The notes below the pieces were generated by a model that worked only from the letters and a program-made list of their open reading frames with translations, searched no databases and was not told the DNA's origin. Both the position numbers and the translations under genes were made by a program. This document shows positions 21,723 to 62,746 of a stretch of DNA of 64,000 nt, piece after piece; within the stretch, counting starts at the first letter, position 1, and each line of letters starts with the position of its first letter. The DNA is taken from the IMG/VR virus record IMGVR_UViG_3300024268_000001; one strand, written 5' to 3'. The stretch comes from a virus. Lineage: Duplodnaviria; Heunggongvirae; Uroviricota; Caudoviricetes.

Positions 21723-22019
21723 TTAAAGCTTGGCCAATGCAAAATCTGTGCTAATAATATTCACAAGAATGTCATATTTCTCAGGCGAGTCCACGTGATA
21801 CATCTTGCCTTTCCATTTGACATAATAATCGTCATAACGGTACAGCCTTACGCATCCTTCACCGTCGGGCATATGTGATACGTAATATTTCTTACCTGAG
21901 TCTCGGAGGATCGAATCCTTGGTTGGTATCATGAAGTTGCCGGTCAGCTCAGTATTCCTTGAAAAATCTACTTGGACATAGTTCATCTCTGAACGTACAA
22001 AACCTTTACCGATTTTCAT
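21723..22019 (-). CDS. hypothetical protein, paralog of 26861-27118
   Basis: Shared VDFxR, IP, VRxY, KxYHVxS and ALAKL/ALARLK. Confidence 0.75.
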   Translation of the reverse strand: MKIGKGFVRSEMNYVQVDFSRNTELTGNFMIPTKDSILRDSGKKYYVSHMPDGEGCVRLYRYDDYYVKWKGKMYHVDSPEKYDILVNIISTDFALAKL

Positions 22020-22025
22020 ATTGTT

Positions 22026-22772
22026 TTATCCTTCCATAGCCAGGCATTTCTTACCGTCCTCACTATCACGTTTGAGCAACGGTGCGAAGTCGCTCTTGGG
22101 ACGAAGACGGTGTGCCTCTTCCCATGTTAAGTATGTATTCGCGACTTCGTTGTAAACCTTCATGACGTCATCCTTGAGCCACTTGTCCTTGAACTGGTTC
22201 GCGGGAAGTACGCCAAGACGATACCATTCAGCCGGGTAGTACGACGATGTGTCCTTGAACTTTGTCTTAAGGTGTTTTCCCTGTTTGGCTGCCCAGTATT
22301 GAATTCGAATTTCCTTTTTCTTTTTTATGAGACAGCCGTAAGGTTCGAACAGGTCTTGGATTTCACTGAAGTACATCTGTTCTTGGTCGAAGCGATCCAG
22401 TTCCTTTTCCATATCGCGGTTGTTGAATGTGGCGATGAGTTTCGCGGTCGCAGCATTCCAGAGTTCCTTGATTAACGGATTACCTGGGTCATCACCAATG
22501 AATTGCCAGAAGTGTTTGGATTCTACGGTCTTGTATCTTGCATAGGCACTGTAGCAGTCACGACACCCGTAGTTCAGGGAAGACTGCATCCAGTTGACGA
22601 TAACTCGACACATCTGCGTAGCCGTGTTGTAACGCTGTACCATCCAGTTTTGTTTCTTACGAACCCAGGTATGGGTAACCTGATATTCATAACGTTCAAA
22701 CGTAGACACCAGGAATGCCCTCAAGTTATCATTGAGACCGTCCCAAAAGTTCTTGAATTGTTTTTCTGTCAT
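22026..22772 (-). CDS. hypothetical protein
   Basis: 248 aa; GAGG SD and own promoter. Confidence 0.75.
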   Translation of the reverse strand: MTEKQFKNFWDGLNDNLRAFLVSTFERYEYQVTHTWVRKKQNWMVQRYNTATQMCRVIVNWMQSSLNYGCRDCYSAYARYKTVESKHFWQFIGDDPGNPLIKELWNAATAKLIATFNNRDMEKELDRFDQEQMYFSEIQDLFEPYGCLIKKKKEIRIQYWAAKQGKHLKTKFKDTSSYYPAEWYRLGVLPANQFKDKWLKDDVMKVYNEVANTYLTWEEAHRLRPKSDFAPLLKRDSEDGKKCLAMEG

Positions 22773-22835
22773 GTCATTACCTCTTATGTCTATAATATAG
22801 AAAAATACTTTGTGGTTGTAAGTCTTTTTACTATA

Positions 22836-23012
22836 CTATTTTATGCTCAGCAGACCAGTGATTTCGTCGTTAAGGATCTGAAACCTGTCCTGACAACGCA
22901 TCAGTTGCTGGCGAGCCTTTTGAGTAGGATTCTGTCTGAATTCGGTTTCGACTTCGGCCATACTGTTGAGGATGTTTTCCACGTTGCGGTAAAGCTTGGT
23001 GCTGTTCTTCAT
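22836..23012 (-). CDS. small helical hypothetical protein (58 aa, not in the ORF track)
   Basis: AAGAGGTATA-ATG; MKNSTKLYRNVENIL...GLLSIK. Confidence 0.65.
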   Translation of the reverse strand: MKNSTKLYRNVENILNSMAEVETEFRQNPTQKARQQLMRCQDRFQILNDEITGLLSIK

Positions 23013-23020
23013 TATACCTC

Positions 23021-23335
23021 TTAAGATAAAAGTTCTTCCATCTGTGTGTTGAGCATCTTGAGTCGGAACTTCAAGATGTCATCTTCTGTCTCGAGTTCTT
23101 TTTCAACGCCGTCGTTAATCCTGTAACGGAGATTCGGATAACCAGTGGTTATTATTTTTGACGACTGCATCATAGAGCCCAAATCTGAATAATTGAAAAC
23201 GAAACCAAACTGTTCGCCTTTAGGATTCGCGAGGGTACAGAGCCCGTGATTCGTCGGTTCAGAGATTTCAGCCGTTGCCGATACGATGAATACACGGGTA
23301 AATTTAAGCATTATGTCTCTTTCGTAGATTTTCAT
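23021..23335 (-). CDS. hypothetical protein, C-terminal-tail family
   Basis: 104 aa; YRINDG hairpin then a helix ending MEELLS. Confidence 0.7.
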   Translation of the reverse strand: MKIYERDIMLKFTRVFIVSATAEISEPTNHGLCTLANPKGEQFGFVFNYSDLGSMMQSSKIITTGYPNLRYRINDGVEKELETEDDILKFRLKMLNTQMEELLS

Positions 23336-23613
23336 TTTAGTTTAGTCTCTATTAAACTCCAGTTTAATACATTATAGAAATCTATAACGTCTTTTGGTGT
23401 TTTAACTACATATTCTTTTTCTTCGAAGATCCATTTCGTCGGATTGTCATGAAGAGGATGCGGTGCAATAGCGTAATCTATAAAATCCGTATGTATTGTA
23501 AAAGTTGCACCACATTGACCTTCTTCAATCGGCGATACCGAGATTAGATTAACAAGCGTGTCGAAGAAGTATTTCTTATTGGACGGACTATATGCGAAAC
23601 GCATCAATTTCAT
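23332..23613 (-). CDS. hypothetical protein, C-terminal-tail family
   Basis: 93 aa; ATGA coupling. Confidence 0.7.
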   Translation of the reverse strand: MKLMRFAYSPSNKKYFFDTLVNLISVSPIEEGQCGATFTIHTDFIDYAIAPHPLHDNPTKWIFEEKEYVVKTPKDVIDFYNVLNWSLIETKLK

Positions 23614-23855
23614 TCCAGACCTGCCAAATCTATTTCGGCCTTCAAGGTTGCATAAAGCTCTGTAAAGTCCGTCTTAGAGTTAAATGTTTTCCCGTTGATT
23701 TCAAACTTCTCGTTGACCCAGCCATAGACGAAGCTGGTGTTCACGAGACCCTTGTGATAATAGCGAAACACCGGGAGTTCACCCATGTTAAAGATTTCGC
23801 CGACACCGAGAACTTCTTCGGGTTCGCTGTCACCTCGTTTCATTAAGATAGCCAT
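23610..23855 (-). CDS. hypothetical protein, C-terminal-tail family
   Basis: 81 aa; EINGKTF...IDLAGLE. Confidence 0.7.
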   Translation of the reverse strand: MAILMKRGDSEPEEVLGVGEIFNMGELPVFRYYHKGLVNTSFVYGWVNEKFEINGKTFNSKTDFTELYATLKAEIDLAGLE

Positions 23856-23857
23856 GT

Positions 23858-24181
23858 TTACCTCGAAACGTTATAACCCATGGCCGTGAGCTTCGCGATC
23901 ATCTCGAGAGCGTCATCAGATTCCTGACGGATGAACCCGCCCTTGCGAAGATCCTCGTTGATGTCGTCCAGAGTCTGCATGGAGACACAGAGGAGTTCAT
24001 CGTAATTACCCGACGTTGCGAGAAGCTTATAGTTTTCGATGTTACCGTCAGTTAAGGCCTGCGGACGTTCAAACAGCCTTCCGGATTCACGGATCGCGTT
24101 GATTACGTAACCCATGACAGCAAAGGCGTTTCCGTCACAACCAACCAAAGTATATTCGTCGATTTGTTTTGCCATATTCAT
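23858..24181 (-). CDS. hypothetical protein
   Basis: 107 aa; LVGCDGNAFAVMGYV motif; own promoter. Confidence 0.75.
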   Translation of the reverse strand: MNMAKQIDEYTLVGCDGNAFAVMGYVINAIRESGRLFERPQALTDGNIENYKLLATSGNYDELLCVSMQTLDDINEDLRKGGFIRQESDDALEMIAKLTAMGYNVSR

Positions 24182-24193
24182 ACCTCATATTAT

Positions 24194-24250: not shown

Positions 24251-24664
24251 TTAACCGGGGAGCTTATCGATGTGTCTTAACGTTTCGTCTTGCCGCATCT
24301 TGAGATATGACTTGAGATGCTGGTGGTACAGATCGTCCATGACTTGGCACAGTTCCTCAAAGGACTTTGCTTTCTTATACCTGTTAGTACCCTGGGTTGA
24401 CAGGTAAAGATGTTCTTTCTTGTACTTGAACATAAAGTTACCTGCTTCATCGATTAGCACCAACCCTGTACAATGCAACCGTAGGGATTCAGGTATGGTC
24501 GTATCGTGAATTACCCCAAGGTTAATATCAAGGCCGATCTTACCCATCATTGCACACAATGAACAGTCATACAATGTTATCCCGTCTTTGATATTACCAT
24601 ATTTGGCTTCGAACGTCTTTGCATACGGGCTAAGTTTTGCTTTGATTTCTTTTGTAAGTTCCAT
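24251..24664 (-). CDS. hypothetical protein, xLPG-tail subfamily
   Basis: Start moved to ATG 24664 (6 nt after TATATT); ends HIDKLPG. Confidence 0.75.
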   Translation of the reverse strand: MELTKEIKAKLSPYAKTFEAKYGNIKDGITLYDCSLCAMMGKIGLDINLGVIHDTTIPESLRLHCTGLVLIDEAGNFMFKYKKEHLYLSTQGTNRYKKAKSFEELCQVMDDLYHQHLKSYLKMRQDETLRHIDKLPG

Positions 24665-24810
24665 ATAATGAATATAGTAAAAAGAATAAAACCCGTACAT
24701 AACTATTTGACTTAAAAATTCCACGGGCTCGCCATATAGTATGTAAGGCCGAAAATTTTTTATGAATAATAATTATTTAAACCGGTTGGATAGTTTACTA
24801 TATTATGAAC

Positions 24811-25101
24811 ATGGATATAATAAGAATTAACGGCAAAAGAATGACATTTCACCCAGAAGCACCACTGGAGGTAAAGCCAGACGGTAGTTTTCTGTTGCGA
24901 ATCAAGAAATGTAAGGAAAAGAAAACGGCATGGGGATGGAGGTCATACTACGTTACTGAAACCTATCCTGTACCGGCGAAACGTAAGACTAATATTGAAT
25001 TCGACGGCGTTTCCTATACATGTAAGAATATGCCGATGAGCGAGGTCGTGAAACTCCGTGCACACATTGAGACAATGTTAACCCTGGATAACTTGAAATG
25101 A
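24811..25101 (+). CDS. hypothetical protein, C-terminal-tail family
   Basis: ATG 6 nt after TATATT (24799-24804); ends LTLDNLK. Confidence 0.75.
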   Translation: MDIIRINGKRMTFHPEAPLEVKPDGSFLLRIKKCKEKKTAWGWRSYYVTETYPVPAKRKTNIEFDGVSYTCKNMPMSEVVKLRAHIETMLTLDNLK

Positions 25102-25361
25102 ATGTCATCGGCTACAGATACCATGAAAACGACATGCATTATTTTATGCTGGATTTCCGCCGCGAATTTAAGGCGCGGGAATCTATGTTGGTAGTTCCGG
25201 TTATTAATAACGAGAATAAGAAGGAATATTTGTATCTTGAAAGAGATACTTTTGAAACCGTCCTATATGATGGCCGCGAATATGAAATGCTGAAACAAGA
25301 AGATTACGCTATTCTGAAAGAAATAATGTCTACACTTTTTGCAATAGAGAGTCTTGAATAA
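25098..25361 (+). CDS. hypothetical protein, C-terminal-tail family
   Basis: ATGA coupling; ends FAIESLE. Confidence 0.75.
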   Translation: MNVIGYRYHENDMHYFMLDFRREFKARESMLVVPVINNENKKEYLYLERDTFETVLYDGREYEMLKQEDYAILKEIMSTLFAIESLE

Positions 25362-25396: not shown

Positions 25397-25810
25397 ATGT
25401 ACGAAAAACAAATCAATGAACTGGAAATTATGATGGGTCGTTATCGTTACCTTGAAGACCTCGGTAAAAAGTATAAGACCAAGTTCGCCAATATATCCGG
25501 CAATTACAAATTTGAGATGGATCCCTGCTTATACAATATTAACACGCCTGAATTGGATATTAGAATTAAACGTACTAAACCTAATGGCAGTATTGTATTC
25601 TTAATTGCCGCACTTATCCAATATGTCCACGATACAAAACAATTTAAATATGAAATCCATCTATATAATGGGAAAGACAAAAACTTTACCTATCCTTCAG
25701 AAATTAGCCAGATGCGGGATTTTGAAATACTGTTTAATTACGAACTGAAGAAGTTTGCTAAGGACACCCAGAAAAAAATTATTGATTCAATCAATAAACT
25801 TCCCGGCTAG
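25397..25810 (+). CDS. hypothetical protein, xLPG-tail subfamily
   Basis: Ends IIDSINKLPG. Confidence 0.75.
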   Translation: MYEKQINELEIMMGRYRYLEDLGKKYKTKFANISGNYKFEMDPCLYNINTPELDIRIKRTKPNGSIVFLIAALIQYVHDTKQFKYEIHLYNGKDKNFTYPSEISQMRDFEILFNYELKKFAKDTQKKIIDSINKLPG

Positions 25811-25828: not shown

Positions 25829-26251
25829 ATGAATCAAAAAGAACAAGAAGCATATCATCACTTACACGATATTTTCAAGCAGTGTCAAGCCAAGTACGGT
25901 TATCTCGTTAACTGTGACTACTTCAACTTTGGTGGTGGCGTGTATGATGATGACTATTCGACTAATCTTGCAAATGAAATGGTTATCAACAGACAGCATG
26001 CAACGACAGGTAATATTATATTCTATGTAAGCTGTAAAATTGTATACCGCGGTTCTTCTGCCGGTATATTTGCTGATACGTATTCTTACAACCTTACTAT
26101 TGGTCGTCATGAAGACCGCAAGGTGAAAGAATTTCAGAGCGAAGAAAAATTGCTCGCCGAGTTTGACTGAGTTTTTAACCTGGAATACCGTAGGGTTATG
26201 AACGTCAAGAAAAGAAAATTGGCTCAAATAATCGACAATCTTCCTGGTTAA
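25829..26251 (+). pseudogene. xLPG-subfamily gene interrupted by an in-frame TGA at 26168-26170
   Basis: The same frame continues VFNLEYRRVMNVKKRKLAQIIDNLPG to TAA at 26249-26251. Confidence 0.7.
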
Positions 26252-26268: not shown

Positions 26269-26595
26269 ATGCAACGGTCAAAAGTAATTAAACTTATTTA
26301 TTCGGATAAACACTTAGACGACGATTCTGAAACGGAGTATCTTGTAATCGTTCATAAGGGTGTCGGCAGAACGAGGTTTTCCACGTCGTTAGGCGTACGA
26401 GATGCTTTCAACTTTACATATCGAAAAGATAATGTAGACTTGACTGAACACTTTCGCATTGTTCTTTCTGGTAACCATGAAGCGTTTTATCTAAAAGAAA
26501 CAAATAAATGGTATGACGTCGATAGACCTAAGGAATTCGAACAATTAAGACATGACCTTGAAACTGCTTGCACTCTTGCATTACTGGAGGGTTAA
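26269..26595 (+). CDS. hypothetical protein, C-terminal-tail family
   Basis: Leaderless-type start; ends LALLEG. Confidence 0.75.
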   Translation: MQRSKVIKLIYSDKHLDDDSETEYLVIVHKGVGRTRFSTSLGVRDAFNFTYRKDNVDLTEHFRIVLSGNHEAFYLKETNKWYDVDRPKEFEQLRHDLETACTLALLEG

Positions 26596-26597: not shown

Positions 26598-26864
26598 GTG
26601 TATTTGTATATAGGCTGTGACAAATATTGGGTAATGGAAATTATACCGCCGAAGATTTACGATGCGTATTATCTTCGTTGTAAGCTGCATCCGTTTACAA
26701 CGGTACCTTTTTCGCGTGAGGTAGACCGTGAAACATCCGTACAGCTCTGTGACGAAAATGGATTTAGGACCGGTAAAGTCTATAAAGGCGATGCCGCGAT
26801 CTCTCTGATGGAACACCTCATTGGTGTGCTGGCCGTTGAAAAATTAAATGGAGAAGACAAATGA
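26598..26864 (+). CDS. hypothetical protein, C-terminal-tail family
   Basis: GGAGG then GTG at 26598; LAVEKL near the end. Confidence 0.65.
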   Translation: MYLYIGCDKYWVMEIIPPKIYDAYYLRCKLHPFTTVPFSREVDRETSVQLCDENGFRTGKVYKGDAAISLMEHLIGVLAVEKLNGEDK

Positions 26865-27118
26865 AAGTAGATGTTGCACATTCCCGAATAAATTTGGGAC
26901 TATCGACCTTTAACGTCGATTTTAAACGCGAGGCATATGTTGGCTCTGAAGGTCAACTGGTTATACCGTTGGAACGCGGCTTGAATGTACGTGTATATCC
27001 GAACGAAGAATCATGGGTTAAGGTAGACAGGAAGGTCTATCATGTGAATTCGAAAGATAAGTGTGCGGCAATAGCGAACGATATTTTAAATAGAATTGCC
27101 TTGGCAAGACTCAAGTAA
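26861..27118 (+). CDS. hypothetical protein, paralog of 21723-22019
   Basis: Shared motifs; ends IALARLK. Confidence 0.75.
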   Translation: MKVDVAHSRINLGLSTFNVDFKREAYVGSEGQLVIPLERGLNVRVYPNEESWVKVDRKVYHVNSKDKCAAIANDILNRIALARLK

Positions 27119-27135: not shown

Positions 27136-27588
27136 ATGACTGATATTGAAAAACATCTTAACATGTTTATTGAAAAACACCAAAGCCTTGTTGCGGCCTA
27201 TAAGCACGTATTACCTATGGCTGGACAATGGGAATCTAAGTTTGGGTGTTACAGACGCGATAGTCGTTATGATGGATTTGAGGTGAATGCCCGTGATTAC
27301 TCGAATAACGACTTTGATCCTGGGATATTCATACACATTTGGCGGTATAACGAAAAACGAAACTATGCATTCAAGATGGATGCTTCTGTAAGATATACCC
27401 GAGAAAAGAAATTTGAATATACGATTGAATTCAACAGAAAGCGAGTCAATATGCCCTCAGTCCTTCATTATAAGAATAATGACGAACTGATTGCTGCATT
27501 TGAAGAATTCCTTAAGGAAGACTGCGATAAGTTGCTGAAAGCCGAGAAACAAAAAATAAACAATATTCTCAACAGTCTTCCGGGTTAA
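27136..27588 (+). CDS. hypothetical protein, xLPG-tail subfamily
   Basis: Leaderless-type start; ends ILNSLPG. Confidence 0.75.
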   Translation: MTDIEKHLNMFIEKHQSLVAAYKHVLPMAGQWESKFGCYRRDSRYDGFEVNARDYSNNDFDPGIFIHIWRYNEKRNYAFKMDASVRYTREKKFEYTIEFNRKRVNMPSVLHYKNNDELIAAFEEFLKEDCDKLLKAEKQKINNILNSLPG

Positions 27589-30675: not shown

Positions 30676-31311
30676 ATGGCACGCAAACAAAGAAAAGAAA
30701 CTATCCTGGCCTTTAGCGACATTGTAAAGTCTTTTAACGCTAAAGTTAAGCACTTTGACACTATCGCCGAACACATGAGCAAGTTGCCCATGTTAGACAA
30801 GACTATTTGCAAAACGTATAACATGGATGATCCTGCAAAGGACTTGGTGGTCAAGTGTACTTACAGAATCCCGTTCAAGATGGTGGAATCTCAGTTCATG
30901 GACTGGGAAAACTATAGCCATAAGCTTCTTTGTGTTATTCCCGCGGCAATCATGAAAGAGAGTAAGTGTGAATTAACTGTTAAGTTCGATATTAACAAAA
31001 ACGGGAAAATTCGCTTTAAGATTGATAACCTGCATTATAATGTATGGCGGAACACAAGAAATGGCAAAGACTGGATTACTCCGGCTGAATCGAAGAGTGT
31101 TAAGGAAACGTCTGTTAGCGACATTATTAAAAACGCTCTGGAAGACAACAAGAGAAGTAAGGTGTCCGCGAGACGTATCACTGACGATTTCGAATGGTTC
31201 AAGGATGCAGTCGAAGCATGTCTTAAGGCAATGTCCTCTGATCAGCTGAGAGATGCATACCAGGCCCGAAACATCCTGACGACTGGCCGTGCGATTGCTA
31301 CTCTGAAATAA
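30676..31311 (+). CDS. hypothetical protein
   Basis: 211 aa; ends RAIATLK. Confidence 0.8.
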   Translation: MARKQRKETILAFSDIVKSFNAKVKHFDTIAEHMSKLPMLDKTICKTYNMDDPAKDLVVKCTYRIPFKMVESQFMDWENYSHKLLCVIPAAIMKESKCELTVKFDINKNGKIRFKIDNLHYNVWRNTRNGKDWITPAESKSVKETSVSDIIKNALEDNKRSKVSARRITDDFEWFKDAVEACLKAMSSDQLRDAYQARNILTTGRAIATLK

Positions 31312-31379: not shown

Positions 31380-32054
31380 ATGATTAACGCCAGTATGACA
31401 ATCGACCAAGCATTTGACGAGAATGCAAAGCTGTTCCAGTATTACGAGCAGGCCCGAAAGATTATTAAGGAATTCCCGTTCCAGGAATACCTGCATGTCG
31501 GCTTCGGCGCCGGCGCTCTTAAGTCCAATGAACTTACGTTCAACCTTGAATACAGTTTCGTTCCGACTTACTGCGAATCTCCGTTTAGAGGGTACTACCA
31601 GGACAAGGACACAAAACAGTGGTACTATACGGATGTTCCGTATGAATGGATTAACGATGTCGTAAAGTCTCAGCCTACCCTGATTGACTTCCAGATGAAA
31701 TACCGCATTGACAAGGACGAATGGACTATTAAGCCGAAATATGTCTCCATGCCTTCCTATATCAACCGTAAGGTTTTCCGCAAGATGGAACGAGGTCGTC
31801 TGATGGAATACAATGTTCGAATGGTCATCCAGAAAGACGGTGAAGACGATTGTATTTACAATGCCGTTCAGAAACTGATCGGGTATAGTGCTAAGTGTAA
31901 GGCAGCCAACGCCGTGGCTCGTAAGACCAATGACATCAGTTTCTTTAAGAATCTGTATACTCGGTTAATCCCGGCTATTAAGAAGGACAGCCTGTTTGAA
32001 GTCTTGCAGCTCGTTCAAGATGCTAAGAACAACCGAGCAATAAAAATTCTTTAA
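31380..32054 (+). CDS. hypothetical protein
   Basis: 224 aa; ends RAIKIL. Confidence 0.8.
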   Translation: MINASMTIDQAFDENAKLFQYYEQARKIIKEFPFQEYLHVGFGAGALKSNELTFNLEYSFVPTYCESPFRGYYQDKDTKQWYYTDVPYEWINDVVKSQPTLIDFQMKYRIDKDEWTIKPKYVSMPSYINRKVFRKMERGRLMEYNVRMVIQKDGEDDCIYNAVQKLIGYSAKCKAANAVARKTNDISFFKNLYTRLIPAIKKDSLFEVLQLVQDAKNNRAIKIL

Positions 32055-33778: not shown

Positions 33779-33867
33779 CTCTTCTTTATTTGTTTACACT
33801 TTGGCTCCAATTTCCTATATTATAAATGTTGATAGTTCAATCAACGATTTCACAAGAGGTAATAATT

Positions 33868-35202
33868 ATGGCAAATACGTACGGTTTAACCTGCGAAGAG
33901 AAGTTTGAACGCATGCAGCAAACCCTGTATGTGATTTATCCGAGCATCGCGAGCTTCTATGCGATGTGCAACAAGCGTGTACTTCCGAAGGAATCCGGTG
34001 TGACGCTCCGCATGAACACTAAGGAAGGTTCGACGCCGTTCATCGAGTATACTGAAAGCTTCCTCAAGACTCTCAGTATCGAAAGTTTCACGGTTCTTAC
34101 GAGCATCGAACTCTTCCGCTTGCTTCTGCACCACATCACTACACGTCTTCAGCCGAATCCGGGGTTGACTGTGCAGGCTTCGAACTTCATCTGTTGCGAC
34201 TCGAAAATCCGCAACTGTCTGTTGCCCAAGGACTTGAAAGAGGTCTTCCCGGATGTCTCTGAACTTCTGGCGATGGAACCGAACTTCAACGTTGTCGAAG
34301 ACCTGTATCTTGAAAAGGTCTATGCGATTCTGGAACGTCAGAAGGGTGACGGAAAGGGACAAGGCCAAGGTGGTGGTGCTCCGCAGCCTCAGAGTCAACC
34401 GGGTGGCGGTGAAGGTGAAGGCGATGGTCAACCGCAGGATGGCGACGGTGATGGCGAAGGTAAGTCCGAGAAGGAACAGGAACAGGATTCTCTGAAGCGT
34501 CACTTCAGCGAACAGCAGAGCAAGAAGAACTCTGAAGGCTGGGGTGAAAACGAACTCGTTGACGCACAGGTTTCTGATGAGGTCAACAAGAGACAAATCA
34601 CCAGCTGGTCTGACGTTGGTGAAGGAATGCAGAAGAGAATTCTTAAGGCTAACGAACTTCAGTTTGACCCGTGGACTGTTATTAAGCGCTTCACGACTTC
34701 GGTCTTCTCCGATGCCATTGCATTCACGAGAATGCGTCCGAATCGCCGCCTTCCTGACATGACGGGTCTTCTGCCGGGTAAGCGTCACAGCATGAAGGCT
34801 AAGGTACTCTTTGCGATTGACTGCAGCGGTTCCATGGCTGAAAGCGAAATCGAACGTGGCTGTGCGGTCGTTAACTCTGCGCTCAAGCATGCTGAAGTGG
34901 ATTACTGCTTCTGGGATTGCGGTTGCTCTGACTTCACGAAGAAGCGCACCAAGGCTTCGGACTTCAAGGGTCTCGGTGGTGGTGGTACGAACCCGGATTG
35001 CGTCATCAAGAAGTTGGAAAAGGAAAAGGTGAGATACGATGGTCTCGTGTTCATCACTGACTGCTACTTCGATTGGCAGCAACCCGCAGGGAAGTACAAG
35101 ATTTTCATCCTGCACACCAAGGGTGCTGGTGAACCGCCGAGCTGGTGTCGCTGGCACTTGGGCATGGACGACATCGAAAAGATCCAGAAGTCCCGCTCTT
35201 AA
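33868..35202 (+). CDS. vWA-domain protein, DUF2201-like (metallopeptidase-like N-domain, G/Q/E linker, vWA)
   Basis: FAIDCSGSM, GGGGTN, LVFITDCY; start moved to ATG 33868 after AAGAGG. Confidence 0.85.
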   Translation: MANTYGLTCEEKFERMQQTLYVIYPSIASFYAMCNKRVLPKESGVTLRMNTKEGSTPFIEYTESFLKTLSIESFTVLTSIELFRLLLHHITTRLQPNPGLTVQASNFICCDSKIRNCLLPKDLKEVFPDVSELLAMEPNFNVVEDLYLEKVYAILERQKGDGKGQGQGGGAPQPQSQPGGGEGEGDGQPQDGDGDGEGKSEKEQEQDSLKRHFSEQQSKKNSEGWGENELVDAQVSDEVNKRQITSWSDVGEGMQKRILKANELQFDPWTVIKRFTTSVFSDAIAFTRMRPNRRLPDMTGLLPGKRHSMKAKVLFAIDCSGSMAESEIERGCAVVNSALKHAEVDYCFWDCGCSDFTKKRTKASDFKGLGGGGTNPDCVIKKLEKEKVRYDGLVFITDCYFDWQQPAGKYKIFILHTKGAGEPPSWCRWHLGMDDIEKIQKSRS

Positions 35203-35221
35203 TCTTTGCCTCAGTGAAACC

Positions 35222-35253
35222 AAGGGGTCAGCCGAAAGGTTGACCTCTTTTTT
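35222..35253 (+). terminator. intrinsic terminator
   Basis: GGGGTCAGCC-GAAA-GGTTGACCTC plus T run. Confidence 0.8.
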
Positions 35254-35339
35254 ATTGTAATATCGAAAATAAAATTTTAGATTGTTTAGTTTACAAAATT
35301 GAAATTAAATTCTATATTAAGATAAAAAGAGGTTATTGA

Positions 35340-35909
35340 ATGATAAAAAGATATAAGATAAGGACTTCTGCGACTTGGTGGGAGAAGGAAGGTGACCCGA
35401 ACGTGTATGTCTACGGCAACGTCGACGCGGCCGGTGAACCTACGAATGACGGTTTCTTTAAAGACTCGACCAACAACGCGATCTTCCCTCGTGCACGCAA
35501 GAAGCTTCTCCGCACGGCCATAGTGGAGGAAACCCAGGCTTACAAGTTCTTTGAACAGTTCAACTACAGTTCCCAAAGGGATTCGGACGGTATGAGCGTC
35601 AAGCCTACAGGCGAGTTTCGCCGTTATGTCGATGTGGTTGGACGAAAGAAAACGACGGGCACGAAGTCCACGTATGTGAAGGGGGAATACAAGAGCCATA
35701 CCTATAACACTACTGTGAACATCTACAAGCTGAACTGGGCTGGCCAGCAAAAGCGCGACGAACTGCGGAAGGAACAGAAACCGGATTTGACGAGTGTCAA
35801 CCAGCGTTTAGCTGAAGAGATCAAGCGTGCAGAAAAGGAATCCGCCCGGTTCTTCGGAGCCTATCACAACTGGAACGTCGAAAACCTGCTCAGCAAGCTC
35901 GACATTTAA
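35340..35909 (+). CDS. hypothetical protein
   Basis: 189 aa; own promoter and SD. Confidence 0.8.
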   Translation: MIKRYKIRTSATWWEKEGDPNVYVYGNVDAAGEPTNDGFFKDSTNNAIFPRARKKLLRTAIVEETQAYKFFEQFNYSSQRDSDGMSVKPTGEFRRYVDVVGRKKTTGTKSTYVKGEYKSHTYNTTVNIYKLNWAGQQKRDELRKEQKPDLTSVNQRLAEEIKRAEKESARFFGAYHNWNVENLLSKLDI

Positions 35910-36139
35910 TTTGATAAAAAATAAGTTTAACCCTTAACCCAAAATTACTATCTTATAAAGCATGTTGAATATCGAATGTTTAATGATTGAAATTCCTGCG
36001 GGTTTTACGAAGCTCGCTGGAACAACGAAAGAAAAAATCTTAAATCTTTTCGTTTACAACTCAATCTTAAAATTCTATATTTAACACGTAAGCAATAACG
36101 CTTACAACGTTCAACAAATCAACAAAAGGAAATCTGAAT

Positions 36140-37294
36140 ATGAATATTGCTCAGCTCACCAAAGCCATCAAGTATCTGCCCACCCGTAAGTCCATTCTTC
36201 TCAAGGGTACCCACGGTATCGGCAAGACTGAATGGGTCTCTCACATGGCCGATGTCCTCGGTCTCAAGCTGGTCATCTGGCATGCAAGCCATGCTGCAGA
36301 TGCTGGCGACATCACTGGTCTTCCTTTCCGCATCACTGAAACGGATGCTGAAACTGGCAAGAGCTACGAAGTGACTCGCTTTGCTAAGCCGCAGTGGATG
36401 ATCCAGAACAAGCCGGTGCTTCTGTTGCTCGACGAAATCAACCGTGGCCTCAGCATCGCTTTGAATGCTATCATGCAGCTCACGAACAACGGCACTTACG
36501 ATGACATCAGCCTCCCTGAAGGTTCTCGCATCTTCGCATGTATCAACCCTGAAGAAGACGGTAAGTACGATGTGGGTACTATGGACGCAGCTCAGCTTGA
36601 CCGCTTTGCTATCTACGAATTCAAGCCGACTGTGGAAGAATGGCTTGAATGGGCTGTCAAGAAGGGTTTGGACTACCGTGTGACCGGGTACATCCAGAGC
36701 CATCCGACGAACCTCGACCCGTATACGAACCAGGAACTTGTCAAGTCTGTCCAGGGTCACGACTGTGCAGTTCTTCCTTCTCGTCGTTGCTGGGAACAGG
36801 TCAGCGACACCATCAAGAATGGTGAAGCTGATAAGGCTTGGGAAGGCGGTGAAGGTCACAAGCTTCTCACTGAAATTGTTGCTGGTCTCGTGGGCAGCGG
36901 AGCTGCTCTTGACTTCATCAGCTACTTCAAGGCTCAGGATAATGCACTCTCGCCGAAGATGTTGATGGAAGCTGAAAAGATTGATGCTTCCCTGAAGCAG
37001 AAGATTGAAAAGCTCTGCAAGACCGACTTCCCGAACGCAGTCAAGCTCGTCGGTGGTTGCACGCTCTGGATGAAGGAACACGAAAAGGAAATCCCGGGCG
37101 AAGTCGGAGCTCGTATGGCTCACAACTTCTACGACGTCCTTGAAGCTCTCAACAAGGACACTCGAATCGCTGCGGTCAAGGACTGTGTGATTGAAGCTGT
37201 GAAGAAGCAGGAAGCTTGGGCCATCGGCATCAGCAAGCACGAATCTCGACTCAAGGCACTCTACAAGAATGCTATGATTAGCCGAGACCTGTAA
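36140..37294 (+). CDS. MoxR-type AAA+ ATPase (partner of the vWA protein)
   Basis: GTHGIGKT, LLLDEINRG, FACINP, DAAQLDRF. Confidence 0.9.
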   Translation: MNIAQLTKAIKYLPTRKSILLKGTHGIGKTEWVSHMADVLGLKLVIWHASHAADAGDITGLPFRITETDAETGKSYEVTRFAKPQWMIQNKPVLLLLDEINRGLSIALNAIMQLTNNGTYDDISLPEGSRIFACINPEEDGKYDVGTMDAAQLDRFAIYEFKPTVEEWLEWAVKKGLDYRVTGYIQSHPTNLDPYTNQELVKSVQGHDCAVLPSRRCWEQVSDTIKNGEADKAWEGGEGHKLLTEIVAGLVGSGAALDFISYFKAQDNALSPKMLMEAEKIDASLKQKIEKLCKTDFPNAVKLVGGCTLWMKEHEKEIPGEVGARMAHNFYDVLEALNKDTRIAAVKDCVIEAVKKQEAWAIGISKHESRLKALYKNAMISRDL

Positions 37295-37326
37295 GACTTG
37301 TGAGCCTTCGGGCTCTTTGTTGAACG

Positions 37327-47509: not shown

Positions 47510-47563
47510 AAATTCTCTTCCGTTCCTGTTTACATCTTCCGAATATTTACCTATATTATAAGC

Positions 47564-47908
47564 ATGGAAGCAAAAGTAAGTTCTTTAACAAATGCACAGG
47601 TCAAACAGTTACGTGCAGAAGGTATATTGGATTCGGAAGGTGCATATAACCTGCCTACTTCATCGTTTTTTGAAGCACTTACTGTAAACAATATGCTTTG
47701 GGAGTATAAGGAAAGCGAGTTTGACAGTTGTTATCTAAAAAACGGTAGACTAGAGTGTAAGTTTGAGCCTGGCTCAGTACCTGTCGTTAAAAGTAGCCGT
47801 AAAGAGTTGTATAATTATGCGGTAACTGTGCATAAGAGGCTTTGGTCCATTTATAATAAGCTTCGCAACAAGGAACTGTTGGACATGATTGATAAGAACC
47901 TGGGATAA
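47564..47908 (+). CDS. hypothetical protein, C-terminal-tail family
   Basis: Leaderless-type start; ends MIDKNLG. Confidence 0.75.
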   Translation: MEAKVSSLTNAQVKQLRAEGILDSEGAYNLPTSSFFEALTVNNMLWEYKESEFDSCYLKNGRLECKFEPGSVPVVKSSRKELYNYAVTVHKRLWSIYNKLRNKELLDMIDKNLG

Positions 47909-47988
47909 TCCGTAATAAAATTTCCTTTGGTTTGAGTTTACAACTTCCGACTATTTAACTATATTTAGAACATAAACAAGAGGTTATA

Positions 47989-48483
47989 ATGTTTATCGAA
48001 TTCTTCAAAAGATTTTTGCCCGGTGTTAAATCGTTCCATGACATGGTGCAGGACAGGAAAAATTATATCGATGCGCTCCGTAGAACTACACCGTCGATTT
48101 TAAGAAAGAGTCTAAACCATGTAACAGACCGTAAGTTTATGAAAGATCTCTTGAGACGTCTGTATTGTTATAAGGACCATTCTGTTCGTTATCGGATTGT
48201 CTTTACAGATAACCTCACTTATGGTGGTAGTCTCAAAACCATTTTTAATATAAACAAGAATTTTGGCCTTGCATTTGACGAATCTGAAATCAGGTTCTAT
48301 TTCAACAACGATTTACAACTTGCCGATTACGACTATGAAACAACGATAAAGGAAACGCTTGACCAAATCTTAAGTCCTTATGACCTTATGGTTATACAGG
48401 ATGACTACCATAGAAATATAATAACTCCTGTCAGCGATGCCGATAAGGAACTTGCGACCTATTGTCGTAATGCCTGGGACTAA
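47989..48483 (+). CDS. hypothetical protein
   Basis: 164 aa; own promoter and SD. Confidence 0.75.
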   Translation: MFIEFFKRFLPGVKSFHDMVQDRKNYIDALRRTTPSILRKSLNHVTDRKFMKDLLRRLYCYKDHSVRYRIVFTDNLTYGGSLKTIFNINKNFGLAFDESEIRFYFNNDLQLADYDYETTIKETLDQILSPYDLMVIQDDYHRNIITPVSDADKELATYCRNAWD

Positions 48484-49452: not shown

Positions 49453-49470
49453 AGCTATATTGATAGCGTT

Positions 49471-49544
49471 GGATGGATAGCTCAATCGGTTAGAGCTCCG
49501 GACTCATAACCCGTAGGTTCTCGGTTCAAGTCCGAGTCCATCCA
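49471..49544 (+). tRNA. tRNA with CAT anticodon (elongator Met or Ile2), CCA not encoded
   Basis: GGATGGA/TCCATCC acceptor stem, GCTC/GAGC D-stem, CTCATAA loop, CTCGG-TTCAAGT-CCGAG. Confidence 0.88.
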
Positions 49545-49551
49545 TGAAAGC

Positions 49552-50448: not shown

Positions 50449-50769
50449 ATGATAACGTTAAAGCTAAGATATGATAAGACAGTTTCGTTGAATTCTCGAG
50501 TTTGTGACATAGAGAATATATCGATGGCGTTCAGTAGGGTACTGGACGAAGGGTATATCAATGTGACAAAGAAATGTGTCCCACCGATACAGATATATAC
50601 GCCGCGAAACGTGGACCAACGGATTACATTTTACGATTCCGGACGGAAGATGAAGGAATTTGTTTTGCCGGCGAATTCGGGCGTAAAAACGTTAATTAAC
50701 ATGTGCGAACAGGTTAAAATGTTCAACGAGTACGCGAAGACAATCACTGCGATAGACAATCTGAAATAA
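50449..50769 (+). CDS. hypothetical protein, C-terminal-tail family
   Basis: Leaderless-type start; ends TAIDNLK. Confidence 0.75.
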   Translation: MITLKLRYDKTVSLNSRVCDIENISMAFSRVLDEGYINVTKKCVPPIQIYTPRNVDQRITFYDSGRKMKEFVLPANSGVKTLINMCEQVKMFNEYAKTITAIDNLK

Positions 50770-51344: not shown

Positions 51345-51887
51345 ATGAAAAAGAAATACGAATTTACGGAAATTACCGTTAACGATGCCGGATTCATCAT
51401 GCATCAAATCCGAGCGCTCAAAGACTTCGATGACGTGAAAGCTGGTGACCTTGGCGGCTTTATCCTTAACGAAAGCAATCTGTCTCACAAGGGTAATTGC
51501 TGGGTCTATCCTGGTTCTTTCATCGGAAACAAGGCCAGAGTGACCGGCAATGCAAAGGTAAAAGGCAATAGTGTTGTTCGTAATACGGCCAGGGTTTATG
51601 AAAATGCGGTCATTGACAACGGTGCGGATATTTACACCGCGGCTAGGATTCATGGCAATGCCTATGTTGGCGGTCAGTTAGAAGTTAACCGTTCAGAAAT
51701 CTGTGGTGATGCTCATGTAGAAGGTCATGGTATCGGTTGCCATATCTCAGGGCAGACAGTTATCCGTGACAATGCACATGTATACCTTGAAGAAATGTCC
51801 ATCTATGGAAAGATTATCAAGGACAATGAAAAAGTTGTTAAGATTAAATCACATAAAGAAACGATGGAAGCCCTTGCCAAGCTGTAA
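51345..51887 (+). CDS. hexapeptide-repeat (left-handed beta-helix-like) phage protein
   Basis: RALKDF..VKAGDLGGFI..NLSH.GNCWV then ARVTGN/AKVKGN/ARVYEN repeats; ends MEALAKL. Confidence 0.8.
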   Translation: MKKKYEFTEITVNDAGFIMHQIRALKDFDDVKAGDLGGFILNESNLSHKGNCWVYPGSFIGNKARVTGNAKVKGNSVVRNTARVYENAVIDNGADIYTAARIHGNAYVGGQLEVNRSEICGDAHVEGHGIGCHISGQTVIRDNAHVYLEEMSIYGKIIKDNEKVVKIKSHKETMEALAKL

Positions 51888-53035: not shown

Positions 53036-53710
53036 ATGATTAACAATGAAACTATCGCTAAGGTCAATGAACAGTTCAACGATGCACTCCGTATGACAAA
53101 GGAAATGAATCACGTTTGTAAAAATGCGGACAACGTGATGTGTACAATGAACACTATTCGCCGTAAATTCGAAGAATATTGTAACATCTATGATGAACTT
53201 ACTTCGAAGCATGCAAAGAACTGCACAAGACTCATCGAAACGCAGGCTAGCCTTGCAAAGTTCATTGAAGGACCGGCTGAAGACCGTATTAAGGCCCTTG
53301 CAGAAGAATACAATTCGACTTCCGGCCCGAAGTATTCGCTTCTGTATGCATCGAACTATGTGGACCTTAAAAACGAACAGACTGAACTCGAAAAAGAAAT
53401 CGTCAAGTACGAAACTGCGGCGAATGCCAAAGTAATGCTCATTGATAGCTGTCACTACGCTATCAAGAACTTGTATGTGAAGTTCCAGAACTCTATGGCC
53501 GAAGCCATCCGACAGAAAGAAGCAGTACAGAAGGAACAGGCAAAGAAGCGTATCACGGTGTTTATCGACAACAGCTGGCCGATGAGTCCTCGTCAAATCC
53601 AGCAGGCAATCGATACTCTCACCGCATTCGTAAAGGTTCAGGGTGAAGGTGATGGCCCTATCGAAAAGGGAATCGAAGGACTCAAAGCTTTGAAGAAAGG
53701 CGTCGAATAA
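53036..53710 (+). CDS. coiled-coil protein with a vWA-like C-terminal fragment
   Basis: ITVFIDNSWPMSPRQIQQAI resembles VLFAIDCSGSMAESEIERG of 33868. Confidence 0.7.
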   Translation: MINNETIAKVNEQFNDALRMTKEMNHVCKNADNVMCTMNTIRRKFEEYCNIYDELTSKHAKNCTRLIETQASLAKFIEGPAEDRIKALAEEYNSTSGPKYSLLYASNYVDLKNEQTELEKEIVKYETAANAKVMLIDSCHYAIKNLYVKFQNSMAEAIRQKEAVQKEQAKKRITVFIDNSWPMSPRQIQQAIDTLTAFVKVQGEGDGPIEKGIEGLKALKKGVE

Positions 53711-54803: not shown

Positions 54804-55217
54804 ATGAGCGTAATTCTTAAAATCGAATGGTTAAATCGTTATACGAATAACTGCGGGCCGACAGGTTCCGTACAGGGTTCGTTCCAGGCCGGATTAAAGT
54901 TTATCAAGGCGGAAATGGAATGGTTTGGCGTAGATATAAAAGAAATGACAAAACCCGACGATTACTCAAGTTATGTTGCAAGACATGTTAGGTTCGCGGA
55001 ACCGGCTGTAATGACCGGACCTCCACACCAAGAAAGCGGTGAATATGACCAAAGGCTCACCATATTCGACCACATGACCGGTGAAGTATTCTATAAGGCT
55101 GAGATGCTGGCAAGAAACTATAAACCCGGTTCCAATGAACCGTTTGAACTGTACAGAGAAGTAATCTATAACATAATGAAATATAAGGCGGTCATACCTA
55201 TTGTTGAAAACCTGTAA
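54804..55217 (+). CDS. hypothetical protein, paralog of 62104
   Basis: MSVILKIEWL..., DQRLTIFD...GEVFYK, ends VENL. Confidence 0.8.
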   Translation: MSVILKIEWLNRYTNNCGPTGSVQGSFQAGLKFIKAEMEWFGVDIKEMTKPDDYSSYVARHVRFAEPAVMTGPPHQESGEYDQRLTIFDHMTGEVFYKAEMLARNYKPGSNEPFELYREVIYNIMKYKAVIPIVENL

Positions 55218-55315
55218 TAAAATTTTAAAATCTTTTTGTTGACACAACATCTGAATTTTTCTATATTTAAACATGTGGTTGAATGGTTCAACTACTTAAA
55301 ATAACTGAGGTTAAT

Positions 55316-56068: not shown

Positions 56069-56416
56069 ATGGTAAATAAACGTTGTGTACGAATCTTCTT
56101 CATTCCCGACCCGCATCAGCGCGTTCCCGACGACATTTACAACTATTTGGAAGACAATAAGATTGTCTGGCCGGATAATGGCCTTCCGTATATCCAATCT
56201 GAATCCGGAAACTCAAGACTTTACTTCAAGAGTAGCGAGGCTATCCGTTACGGGTTCGCGAAGAACAGTGAAGATGCGGAAAAGAACATTTTCTATGCGA
56301 AGGGTTTTCTCAATACCGATGAAGGAATCATCGAATTCTGTCATCTCTTCGACAAGGAAAAGTACGCCGACAAGCTTGATAAGACTTTGGAGGTTTTGCC
56401 TACTGTAAATCCGTGA
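56069..56416 (+). CDS. hypothetical protein, C-terminal-tail family
   Basis: DKLDKTLEVLP matches the KTLEVLG tail of genes at 105-1097. Confidence 0.75.
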   Translation: MVNKRCVRIFFIPDPHQRVPDDIYNYLEDNKIVWPDNGLPYIQSESGNSRLYFKSSEAIRYGFAKNSEDAEKNIFYAKGFLNTDEGIIEFCHLFDKEKYADKLDKTLEVLPTVNP

Positions 56417-60052: not shown

Positions 60053-60676
60053 ATGAATGCATCTGAACTTACTAATCCGGCTATCGTGAAAGTGTCCAAG
60101 TCCGACGGAAACTATTTCTGGTACGGAAAGGAAAAGTTTAAGTTCACCGGCTGTTTTTCCACGACCGATTCGCAAATACAACATATCGCATCGGGAGTAG
60201 AATCCTACATCAAGCGTGATTCTGACGTGTACAAGGAAATTCACCGCCAGTGGGAAGTAAACCTTGAAGAAAAGAAGGCGAAAGATAAGGCGAAGCGTGA
60301 AGCCAAGAAGAAGGTTCTCCTCGAGCTCGCGAAAGATTCGACGATGACTGCACTTGAATGGAGGATTAAGCTCCTCAAGGAACATGGCCTGTTGCTCAAG
60401 TCCAGACCGTACGGGCACGATTACGAAGTATTCCAGTGCAACGTGGGTTGGAATGATTCGTTCCTGGTTACTAAGGCGGACGGTTCGCAGAACCTCGACG
60501 TAAAGACTATTAAGAAGTTCTGCTGTGTGGACAAGATTACCAATGCTGACCCTTACAGCAGGTTCAACGACATAACCATCAAAGAAGTCCTGGAAAAGGT
60601 CGCTCGAATCCAACGCAAGGAAATGGAAAAGAATAAGGCTGAAATAATTAATGCCATCGATACTCTTGCCGGCTAA
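60053..60676 (+). CDS. hypothetical protein, C-terminal-tail family
   Basis: 207 aa; ends IINAIDTLAG. Confidence 0.8.
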   Translation: MNASELTNPAIVKVSKSDGNYFWYGKEKFKFTGCFSTTDSQIQHIASGVESYIKRDSDVYKEIHRQWEVNLEEKKAKDKAKREAKKKVLLELAKDSTMTALEWRIKLLKEHGLLLKSRPYGHDYEVFQCNVGWNDSFLVTKADGSQNLDVKTIKKFCCVDKITNADPYSRFNDITIKEVLEKVARIQRKEMEKNKAEIINAIDTLAG

Positions 60677-61495: not shown

Positions 61496-61578
61496 TCCGA
61501 AAATAAAAACCGGACTAAATATGTTTACGATTTAATCCGGTTTTACTATCTTTTAATCATAACGAAGAGGTTAACAAT

Positions 61579-61728
61579 ATGAGAAAAAGAACTTACATCC
61601 TGTACGTGCGTAACAATAACGGCCTGAACCAGGTAGGTACGGCTGGCGAAGAAGAATACGAAAGCCTTGACAAGAAATGTGCCGATATGCGTAAGAACGG
61701 TGAAAATGCATTCATTTGGGAGATTTAA
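61579..61728 (+). CDS. small hypothetical protein (49 aa, not in the ORF track)
   Basis: AAGAGG SD after a hairpin promoter; MRKRTYILYVRNN... Confidence 0.65.
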   Translation: MRKRTYILYVRNNNGLNQVGTAGEEEYESLDKKCADMRKNGENAFIWEI

Positions 61729-61816
61729 CTTGAGAAAAGATGTATATTATACTGAAGAGAGCTGGGAAGAGTTAAGAAAGAAATGGGACGAGCTTCAGCG
61801 TCGGAATAAATAAAAT

Positions 61817-62026
61817 ATGGAGATGGGGCCGGAAGAATTCAAAGATTTCATGGATGCGCAAAAGGACGCAATAGAAGTTGCCAAGTGGTTATGGGGCGAG
61901 AAAATCGGCCGAGACCCTGGCGACGAGTTCGTCATCAAGTGGATTAAGGAAAACGCAGAAGATTTCAGAAAGAACTGGCCCACTTATTACGAAGAGTGGA
62001 AGAAAAAGAAACAGAGTTTGCATTAA
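61817..62026 (+). CDS. small protein with a DUF4032-like motif
   Basis: AKWLWGEKIGRDPGDEFVIKWIKENAEDFR resembles the HKW..SE..G.D.G....W pattern. Confidence 0.55.
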   Translation: MEMGPEEFKDFMDAQKDAIEVAKWLWGEKIGRDPGDEFVIKWIKENAEDFRKNWPTYYEEWKKKKQSLH

Positions 62027-62035
62027 CCTCCTGGA

Positions 62036-62067
62036 AAGCCCGCGGGAAAAATTCCTGCGGGTTTTTT
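62036..62067 (+). terminator. intrinsic terminator
   Basis: AAGCCCGCGGG/CCTGCGGGTTT plus T run. Confidence 0.75.
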
Positions 62068-62103
62068 ATTTACAAAACCTTCGGAATTAATTATATTATA
62101 GTC

Positions 62104-62496
62104 ATGAGCGTAATTCTTGAAATTCAATATTTGGAAAGATATAATACTGACCGTGTGAAAAAGGGACAGATTCATTACGCAGATCCTATTTCGTTAAAAG
62201 AAGTAACGGGTTCTTCAATAGAATGGTTTGGACTGGACATTAAATGGGAAAACAGTTTTGGCGATATTCAGCATATTGAGTTCTGCGAGCCCTGTGCATC
62301 ATTAAAGTATGACCAACGGCTTATTATCTACAACGACAAGACAAATGAAGAATTCTATAGAGTCGAACAAATCCAGGAAGAAAACAGAAAATACAAAGAC
62401 CCGGAGCGATGCCAGCGGGCGTTTGCTATTTGTCGTGATGCCCTTTGGAACATAGAAAAATACAAGACGATAATCGCTATTGAAGAAAACCTGTAG
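62104..62496 (+). CDS. hypothetical protein, paralog of 54804
   Basis: Leaderless-type start; ends IAIEENL. Confidence 0.8.
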   Translation: MSVILEIQYLERYNTDRVKKGQIHYADPISLKEVTGSSIEWFGLDIKWENSFGDIQHIEFCEPCASLKYDQRLIIYNDKTNEEFYRVEQIQEENRKYKDPERCQRAFAICRDALWNIEKYKTIIAIEENL

Positions 62497-62548
62497 AAAA
62501 ATTCTAATCTTTTTCTATTGACAAAAAGCTCAGAAGTTTCTATATTAT
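62485..62548 (+). repeat. 64-bp direct repeat, copy 1 (last codons + promoter)
   Basis: Matches 62735-62798 with 2 mismatches. Confidence 0.9.
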
Positions 62549-62569
62549 GAATATACAAGAGAGGTTAAT

Positions 62570-62746
62570 ATGGAAGCTGAAGAAATTAAATCTATCGTGA
62601 AGGACCACCTTGTCAGCAAGGGATGTTCGGTTGAGCTCGCGGACGAGTACCTGGCGAGCTATGCAGAGACAATCTATGAAGATTTCGAGAATGGCGAATC
62701 CTGCGAAGAAATAGCCCAGACCATTCTCGACAATGAAAACCTGTAG
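62570..62746 (+). CDS. small acidic protein (58 aa, not in the ORF track)
   Basis: SD-led ATG 62570; ends ILDNENL. Confidence 0.7.
   Translation: MEAEEIKSIVKDHLVSKGCSVELADEYLASYAETIYEDFENGESCEEIAQTILDNENL

Follow-up and report, generated by a model that had tools for sequence, protein, structure and literature searches.

About a third of the small, early-type proteins encoded by a 64,000-nucleotide (nt) stretch of phage DNA (IMG/VR record IMGVR_UViG_3300024268_000001; hereafter, the window) end in the same short peptide, an amphipathic helix of roughly two turns with the pattern T(−7)-h-x-A(−4)-[I/L](−3)-[D/E/A](−2)-x-L(0), usually followed by 0 to 2 further residues. We tentatively favor the explanation, which we rate somewhat short of probable, that this tail is a short linear motif, portable and specific to the lineage, which serves as a docking helix for a single partner common to its carriers. 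The window is part of the ~412-kb genome of a distant T4-like phage from the gut or rumen, in which the replication genes occupy the minus strand from ~1,400 to 21,600 of the window, and ~75 small genes lie on the plus strand from 24,805 to 64,000. Genes are referred to below by their first window position, with full coordinates and tails in Table 1.

The gene set comprised 105 window genes, called as the longest non-overlapping open reading frames (ORFs) on the dominant strand. The tails were found at the gene ends where the original prediction had placed them. Specifically, a strict pattern ([AT][IL][DE]xL, ending no more than 4 residues from the stop) occurred at the C terminus of 10 of the 105 proteins against 0.09 expected (Poisson P = 6e-18), with just 3 internal matches in 18,700 positions, and a loose pattern ([ATSV][ILVM][DENQKAS]xL) matched 22 times at C termini, in 20 proteins, where 1.0 match was expected. 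A simple rule (L at 0; I, L, V, or M at −3; a small or aliphatic residue at −4; no more than 4 trailing residues) was satisfied by 26 of the 80 early proteins, compared with an expectation of 4.6% from internal positions, and by none of the 23 core replication proteins, which bears out the earlier claim that the latter lack the tail. A motif search of the C-terminal residues against shuffled and internal controls, as had been proposed, led to the same pattern: unsupervised expectation-maximization (EM) on the last 14 amino acids (aa), with no prior pattern, yielded x-x-x-A-[LI]-[EAD]-x-L, with a likelihood exceeding that of both controls.

The motif recurs in three related metagenomic phages (L001, L005, and L015), where the simple rule was satisfied by 11 of 41, 5 of 31, and 11 of 28 proteins, respectively, and it is not enriched in the first 50 kb of T4 or in an unrelated phage. 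When a tail matrix was trained on the window only, with L001 and L005 held out, 22% of the L001 C termini (P = 3e-6) and 17% of the L005 C termini exceeded the internal 99th percentile, and there was no match in the unrelated phage L008 (0 of 36) or in the 23 core genes of the window. In comparison, the first 50 kb of T4 gave strict hits in 1 of 81 ORFs and four loose hits. Our literature search returned no relevant description of a shared C-terminal motif in phage early proteins or of this rumen phage group.

Conservation was evaluated column by column in an alignment of 14 sequences, one per body group, with the final Leu as the anchor. The only columns above the 99th percentile of random columns were −10 (N/Q/Y), −7 (mostly T), −4 (mostly A), −3 (I/L), −2 (D/E/A), and 0, with no conservation upstream of −10 across the 14 representatives. 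Since columns −10, −7, and −2 lie outside the selection rule, they provide independent confirmation of the motif. The simple rule was also kept in 18 of 18 tested ortholog pairs, with body identity down to 25–34%, and relatives in general retain the tail where their bodies are 25–45% identical. FALA[KQR]L is kept in 86 orthologs of the 21723 protein, and the tail or its pattern persists in the 24805 ortholog L015:9366 (34% body identity), in 41440 orthologs at 25–47% identity, and in 47033 orthologs of L001 and L005 (34–70% body identity). At the codon level, third positions at −7, −6, −4, and −2 hold 0.00–0.11 bits in 26 aligned tails, compared with as many as 1.8 bits at the first two positions of the codon, and the ortholog pairs show synonymous codon changes at L0 (9 of 18) and at −3 (7 of 18), with position −1 changing freely. 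The near absence of information at third codon positions means that selection is on the protein, and these alignments show that purifying selection maintains the tail at the amino-acid level.

The same data bear on an alternative raised in the original prediction, namely, that the tail is a by-product of recombination at gene ends that overlap the next promoter, considered here together with any other DNA-level origin in promoter or Shine-Dalgarno sequences at gene ends. For most carriers this is refuted: synonymous positions are free, the carriers have only the promoter consensus in common downstream, and the −10 box lies a median of 40 nt past the stop codon (at least 28 nt in 15 of the 19 carriers with a detectable promoter), which places the −35 box outside the gene too. 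As a general account, we therefore rank it as the least probable of those considered, while noting where it does apply. Four carriers stop 2–5 nt before the −10 box; 26861–27118 is the sole carrier with a good −35 box (TTGGCA), serving the next promoter, in its tail codons; and GGAGG lies within the LEV codons of the TLEVLG group. It does hold for the ENL trio (54804, 61996, and 62570), in which the last 9–12 coding bases (…GAAAACCTG), the stop codon, and ~45 nt of the downstream cassette form one repeat; in no other carrier does nucleotide identity run from the last codons into the promoter and stem-loop. The endings IAIEENL, ILDNENL, and PIVENL, included among the original tails, are out of register with the motif, being part of a DNA repeat that enters the next promoter cassette. 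This repeat, a −35/stem-loop/−10 cassette of the promoter-early stem-loop (PeSL) type, is, within 61996–62810 and 54804–55280, near-identical behind 61996–62496 and 62570–62746 and similar behind 54804–55217.

That the tail has been grafted onto an unrelated body is clearest in the 180-aa protein 51345–51887, a YdcK-like left-handed beta-solenoid. Its body matches phrog_5070 (E = 8e-42) over residues 1–164 only, the YdcK-like family being represented also by PF18836, and the closest structure in the PDB is that of YdcK (2f9c; Z = 18.4; 168 aligned residues; root-mean-square deviation, 2.9). In the AlphaFold2 (AF2) model, the solenoid has a predicted local distance difference test (pLDDT) score of 90–99, and a separate terminal helix at residues 170–179 (pLDDT 65–77) is the least confident part. 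Among the 120 homologs listed, the 11 closest (53–96% identity) all belong to this phage group and have the ending xT[LM][EK][AS]I[DEAN]xL, while more than 100 distant homologs, e.g., those of Bartonella prophages, lack the tail and have unrelated endings and different lengths. As the tail is confined to the closest orthologs, it must have been added to a foreign body within this lineage. The YdcK-like beta-solenoid and the PH-like beta-sandwich bodies of other carriers are demonstrably unrelated, in agreement with the earlier claim that very different bodies carry the tail.

Relatedness among the carriers was assessed by BLASTP and iterated profile searches and by bodies-only hhalign comparisons of 20 carrier clusters from which the last 16 residues had been removed. 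The description of the carriers as unrelated-looking proved partly right: with tails removed, the ~26 carriers appear from their sequences to reduce to about 14 body groups without detectable homology, but about half of them are members of one of six paralog groups, i.e., family A, the LPG family, the TLEVLG trio (105–1097), 30676 and 31380, 41440 and 60053 (N-terminal domain only), and 54804 and 61996. A single pair of clusters, 25397 and 27136, came out as homologous in the bodies-only comparison (73% probability over 102 columns), all other pairs staying below 17%; the 39144 body showed no homology to other carriers by this comparison. A link between 47033 and the tail-less 50844, from a first clustering, failed in direct comparison. 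The PHROGs scan of 29 carriers returned, aside from the solenoid, one marginal match (24251–24724, phrog_33913, E = 9e-4), the Pfam scan of 10 of these carriers returned no match, and an ESM Atlas query with 41440–42021 gave nothing usable.

Family A comprises five window genes and members in L001 and L015 with a common 33-residue C-terminal hairpin-helix module. In the AF2 model of the 21723 protein, nine strands are followed by an 18-residue helix (residues 79–96, pLDDT 94–98), of which the tail forms the last two turns. Weak PH/EVH1/Ran-binding-like matches (Z ≤ 4.2; template modeling score ≤ 0.48) were too weak to name this fold. Such a confidently packed helix and the common module, together with the six paralog groups, are what one would expect if the tail were an inherited structural element, that is, the last stretch of a helix capping the small beta-sandwich proteins of one very large, fast-diverging family, with residues serving the protein's own fold or self-association. 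Most carriers would then be unrecognizably diverged members, and a few foreign bodies would have received the family 3′ end by gene fusion. We consider this explanation unlikely, albeit worth serious weight. A hidden Markov model (HMM) of the module recovers all family A members (E = 6e-22 to 3e-13; 6e-22 to 4e-14 for the five window genes) but reaches no other carrier, with nothing outside the family better than E = 0.05 and the best other carrier at E = 0.1; a by-eye reading that 43343, 44913, 45945, and 23610 carry the module received no support from this HMM. The lack of conservation upstream of −10 across the 14 groups and the low model confidence of the solenoid's helix also speak against common structure, and a fold-internal helix would have no cause to keep one register, counted from the C terminus, on solenoid, sandwich, and larger alpha/beta bodies.

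The spacing between the motif and the protein end is variable. An 8-mer form, [TSNQKE]xx[AST][IL][DE]xL, occurs 14 times in ~200 ORFs of the lineage: nine occurrences lie ≤2 aa from the C terminus, four at 17–28 aa, and one at 52 aa in a doubtful ORF. The trailing residues (none, K, G, E, D, N, S, A, PG, AG, or PE) differ even between close orthologs, which, together with the conserved cases 17–28 residues from the end, means that a free carboxylate at a fixed distance is not required. The protein 41104–41391, in which the motif lies 19 residues before the end and is conserved in the L001 ortholog, shows that it tolerates a C-terminal extension. A further near-terminal sequence, QQAIDTL, lies 27 residues before the end of the 224-aa protein 53036–53710 and may be a former C terminus that was later extended.

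This variability bears on whether the tail could be a degron or timing tag. In that case, a protease or unfoldase of the host or the phage, such as the MoxR-type AAA+ ATPase and the vWA/metallopeptidase-like protein of the window, would recognize it and clear the early proteins as a group. Bacteria and phages commonly use C-terminal degrons (e.g., ssrA, MuA, and lambda CII), the tail is confined to early-type genes, and the MoxR-type ATPase, the DUF2201 vWA/peptidase-like protein, and an HExxH protein are all encoded in the same early region. We nevertheless regard a degron as improbable. ClpX/ssrA-type tags have a fixed register to the alpha-carboxylate and non-polar last residues; here, 0–5 residues, and up to 19–28 in conserved cases, separate the motif from the free carboxylate, the trailing residues are often charged, and in place of an unstructured, non-polar peptide there is a short amphipathic helix containing an acidic residue. 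Moreover, MoxR/vWA pairs are widespread in tail-less phages (L008 and L009).

One short terminal peptide on many unrelated proteins is also the hallmark of sorting signals, such as those of T4 internal proteins and Dot/Icm effectors. The tail might accordingly direct capsid loading or export, as the C-terminal equivalent of effector translocation signals or of the capsid-targeting sequence of T4, and it does resemble the latter in being an address-label peptide of ~10 residues common to unrelated proteins of a T4-type phage. The T4 sequence, however, lies at the N terminus of late-packaged internal proteins and undergoes cleavage by the prohead protease, whereas the window carriers lie behind −35/−10 early-type rather than late promoters, with no structural or packaging genes nearby and no evidence of cleavage. 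We judge a sorting role to be very improbable.

The same T, A, I/L, acidic, and L register on solenoid, sandwich, and larger bodies, kept throughout the divergence of these phages, is best explained by recognition by a common factor, which is why we favor a docking helix. The conserved face (A, I/L, and L), together with the acidic residue that flanks it, would fit into a groove on the common partner, which would bring many different early proteins to the same place. An eight-residue tag could spread because it is easily added at a gene's 3′ end, whether by point evolution or by 3′-end recombination between neighboring cassettes. Candidate partners are the gp45-like clamp, the DUF2201 vWA/MoxR pair, the HExxH protein 37617–38318, a chaperonin of the type found in L015, or any host protein.

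The nearest known precedent is the sliding-clamp system of T4, in which the C-terminal tails of gp43, gp55, and gp33 are interchangeable hydrophobic-acidic epitopes that bind the gp45 clamp (Geiduschek and Kassavetis 2010, PMC2988020), and the tail would act much as these do in tethering their proteins to the clamp. In both cases, a short hydrophobic-acidic motif sits at or near the C terminus of unrelated proteins of a T4-family phage, and the window encodes its own gp45-like clamp. The T4 sequences themselves, with gp43 ending in SLDFLFG and gp55 in SLDFLYEAND, account for two of the four loose hits in the first 50 kb of T4, and [AST][IL][DE]xL followed by 0–5 residues fits them and the window tails alike. 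However, T4 has aromatic residues at F4 and F/Y6 of SLDFLF, whereas no window carrier has an aromatic residue flanking the second Leu; position −1 is instead K, S, A, N, T, R, or V (free and mostly polar), with trailing K, E, G, or PG. The window tail is also predicted to be helical, and it is found on ~26 small early proteins within 64 kb, as opposed to three replication/transcription proteins in T4. Genes for the DNA polymerase, gp55, and gp33 were not found within the 64-kb window. A complex prediction for a clamp trimer and the last 35 residues of the solenoid protein scored 0.00, a result that counts neither for nor against binding. We therefore treat as a long shot, hardly above the sorting signal, the specific proposal that in this lineage the tail takes the place of the T4 clamp-binding epitope, with dozens of early proteins riding on, or competing for, the gp45-like or the host beta clamp.

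Several points weigh against a docking helix in general. We infer binding by the tail purely, and early expression of the carriers from the shape of their promoters only. Among orthologs, tail identity (47%) is not above body identity (45%), so that it is the pattern alone that is kept. In family A, where the model packs the tail within the 18-residue helix, it may be merely structural. In addition, the profiles are shallow (1–5 sequences per cluster), and several of the small carriers may share a very old common ancestry.

Two of the carrier groups contain irregular members. In the LPG family, the IIDNLPG ending attributed to 26171–26251 lies behind an in-frame TGA (26168–26170) of 25829–26251, with 26 open and conserved codons past it. 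The gene has 55% identity to the uninterrupted 140-aa ortholog L015:11206–11628, in which an Arg lies opposite the TGA (a CGA-to-TGA type of change), and the TGA is either a recent nonsense mutation or a site of read-through yielding tailed and tail-less forms. The 24251 protein probably belongs to this family as well, to judge by its ending. The KTLEVLP ending of the original list (56069–56416) proved to have five residues after KTLEVL. Within the TLEVLG trio, a 20-codon ORF (728–790) overlaps the stop codon of 783–1097 (ATGA) and resembles the N termini of the paralogs (K-x-Y…L-x-x-x-G-Y), and 452–727 is thus possibly a frameshifted or rearranged copy.

Table 1. Tail-bearing genes of the window and neighboring genes named in the text
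Feature	Coordinates	Strand	Tail or motif (codon coordinates)	Remarks
Family A, 98 aa	21723–22019	minus	TDFALAKL (21726–21749)	Paralog of 24805, 25098, 26269, 26861
Family A	24805–25101	plus	TMLTLDNLK (25072–25098)	C-module HMM E = 4e-14
Family A	25098–25361	plus	TLFAIESLE (25332–25358)	
Family A	26269–26595	plus	TACTLALLEG (26563–26592)	
Family A	26861–27118	plus	NRIALARLK (27089–27115)	
LPG group, 157 aa	24251–24724	minus	TLRHIDKLPG (24254–24283)	Linked to 25397 and 27136 by common LPG ending only
LPG family, 137 aa	25397–25810	plus	IIDSINKLPG (25778–25807)	Orthologs in L015
LPG family, interrupted	25829–26251	plus	IIDNLPG	In-frame TGA
LPG family, 150 aa	27136–27588	plus	INNILNSLPG (27556–27585)	Bodies-only hhalign match to 25397
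211 aa	30676–31311	plus	TGRAIATLK (31282–31308)	Paralog of 31380
224 aa	31380–32054	plus	NNRAIKIL (32028–32051)	Paralog of 30676
Singleton, 119 aa	39144–39503	plus	TMEALDRLD (39474–39500)	Tail kept in ortholog L001:2921
95 aa	41104–41391	plus	EIVSIERL	Conserved in ortholog L001:4819
193 aa	41440–42021	plus	TMKAIEALA (41992–42018)	N-terminal domain only in common with 60053
Singleton, 95 aa	43343–43630	plus	LKDALASLN (43601–43627)	
Singleton, 132 aa	44061–44459	plus	IEKALDAL (44433–44456)	
Singleton, 98 aa	44913–45209	plus	SVKAIESL (45183–45206)	
Singleton, 116 aa	45945–46295	plus	TAAVIDALPE (46263–46292)	
158 aa	47033–47509	plus	MEAMLAVLS (47480–47506)	
Singleton, 106 aa	50449–50769	plus	TITAIDNLK (50740–50766)	
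YdcK-like beta-solenoid, 180 aa	51345–51887	plus	TMEALAKL (51861–51884)	
207 aa	60053–60676	plus	IINAIDTLAG (60644–60673)	N-terminal domain in common with 41440
TLEVLG paralogs (three)	105–455; 452–727; 783–1097	minus	[TN]LEVLG	
115 aa	56069–56416	plus	KTLEVL	Five further residues
ENL group	54804–55217; 61996–62496; 62570–62746	plus	ENL endings	Ending is part of a DNA repeat
gp62-like clamp loader	2050–2487	minus		PF16790
gp44-like clamp loader	3955–5004	minus		
gp45-like sliding clamp	5323–6060	minus		phrog_223, E = 5e-9; 130 homologs; candidate hub
gp32-like	8740–9906	minus		
Helicase	10931–12283	minus		
Sigma70-family factor	14531–15358	minus		
Thymidylate-synthase-like	15691–16539	minus		
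gp47-like	17056–18096	minus		Replication region
gp46-like	19837–21594	minus		Replication region
DUF2201 vWA/metallopeptidase-like	33826–35202	plus		PF13203, E = 1e-5
MoxR-type AAA+ ATPase	36140–37294	plus		phrog_1297, E = 2e-40
HExxH protein, 233 aa	37617–38318	plus	VHESSHFIH	HExxH motif intact

Most of the small plus-strand genes are preceded by the sigma70 promoter TTTACA-N17-cTATATTa, with the −35 box often within a stem-loop. T4-type phages have this arrangement in the PeSL cassettes of their hyperplastic regions (Arbiol et al. 2010, PMC2839356; Comeau et al. 2014, PMC4122927). As in those regions, each carrier is a small ORFan gene with such a promoter in front of it, and the differences among relatives consist in the replacement of whole gene cassettes, the breakpoints falling within promoters. 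PeSLs, however, are intergenic DNA elements, whereas the tail is a protein motif whose codons are unconserved as DNA, save in the ENL trio. The expanded early multigene families of jumbo phages are similar in that many small, fast-evolving early proteins keep one short conserved segment, but their motif belongs to one homologous domain, unlike the tail, which is found on demonstrably foreign bodies too.

Contigs from four metatranscriptome libraries cover 90–95% similar relatives of 39000–48000, although they cannot show transcription or timing. These contigs break or switch partner at 41403–41434, 42065, and 43665, inside promoter cassettes, and their loose ends bear other TTTACA/TTGACA boxes. 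One contig still aligns with the last 66 nt (the tail region) of 41440–42021, although the body of this gene is replaced or diverged over ~520 nt. Proteins identical or near-identical to those of the window were found on metagenomic contigs of 411–428 kb from animal gut and faeces samples, and megablast of two window segments against cultured phages gave no match.

Other features of the region concern the candidate partners and their surroundings. The gp44-like and gp62-like clamp-loader genes are split by two inserted genes (within 2050–5004), one of which encodes a family-2 glycosyltransferase (2462–3277; PF13712, E = 1e-9). The DUF2201 vWA protein, the MoxR-type ATPase, and the HExxH protein form a cluster (33826–38318), and the metallopeptidase-like N-domain of the first has HHxxxR instead of HExxH. 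In L015, a Cpn60/GroEL-type chaperonin (PF00118; L015:1254–2870) is encoded a few kb from the array of tail-bearing genes. The early region also contains genes for tRNA-Leu(TAA) and tRNA-Met(CAT), at 42619–42704 and 49470–49545, respectively.

No other source of proteins without a known function is as large as the early genes of phages, and a tag present on a third of them in this window gives one experimental handle. The tail would exemplify short-linear-motif evolution in a prokaryotic virus, with the same docking peptide gained repeatedly on unrelated bodies, a process that, to our knowledge, is well described for eukaryotes and their viruses and hardly at all in phages. If the clamp were the partner, it would be a general landing pad for host-takeover proteins, beyond its role as a tool-belt for three replication/transcription factors, and the "mobile enhancer/tool-belt" idea developed for T4 would extend to host takeover.

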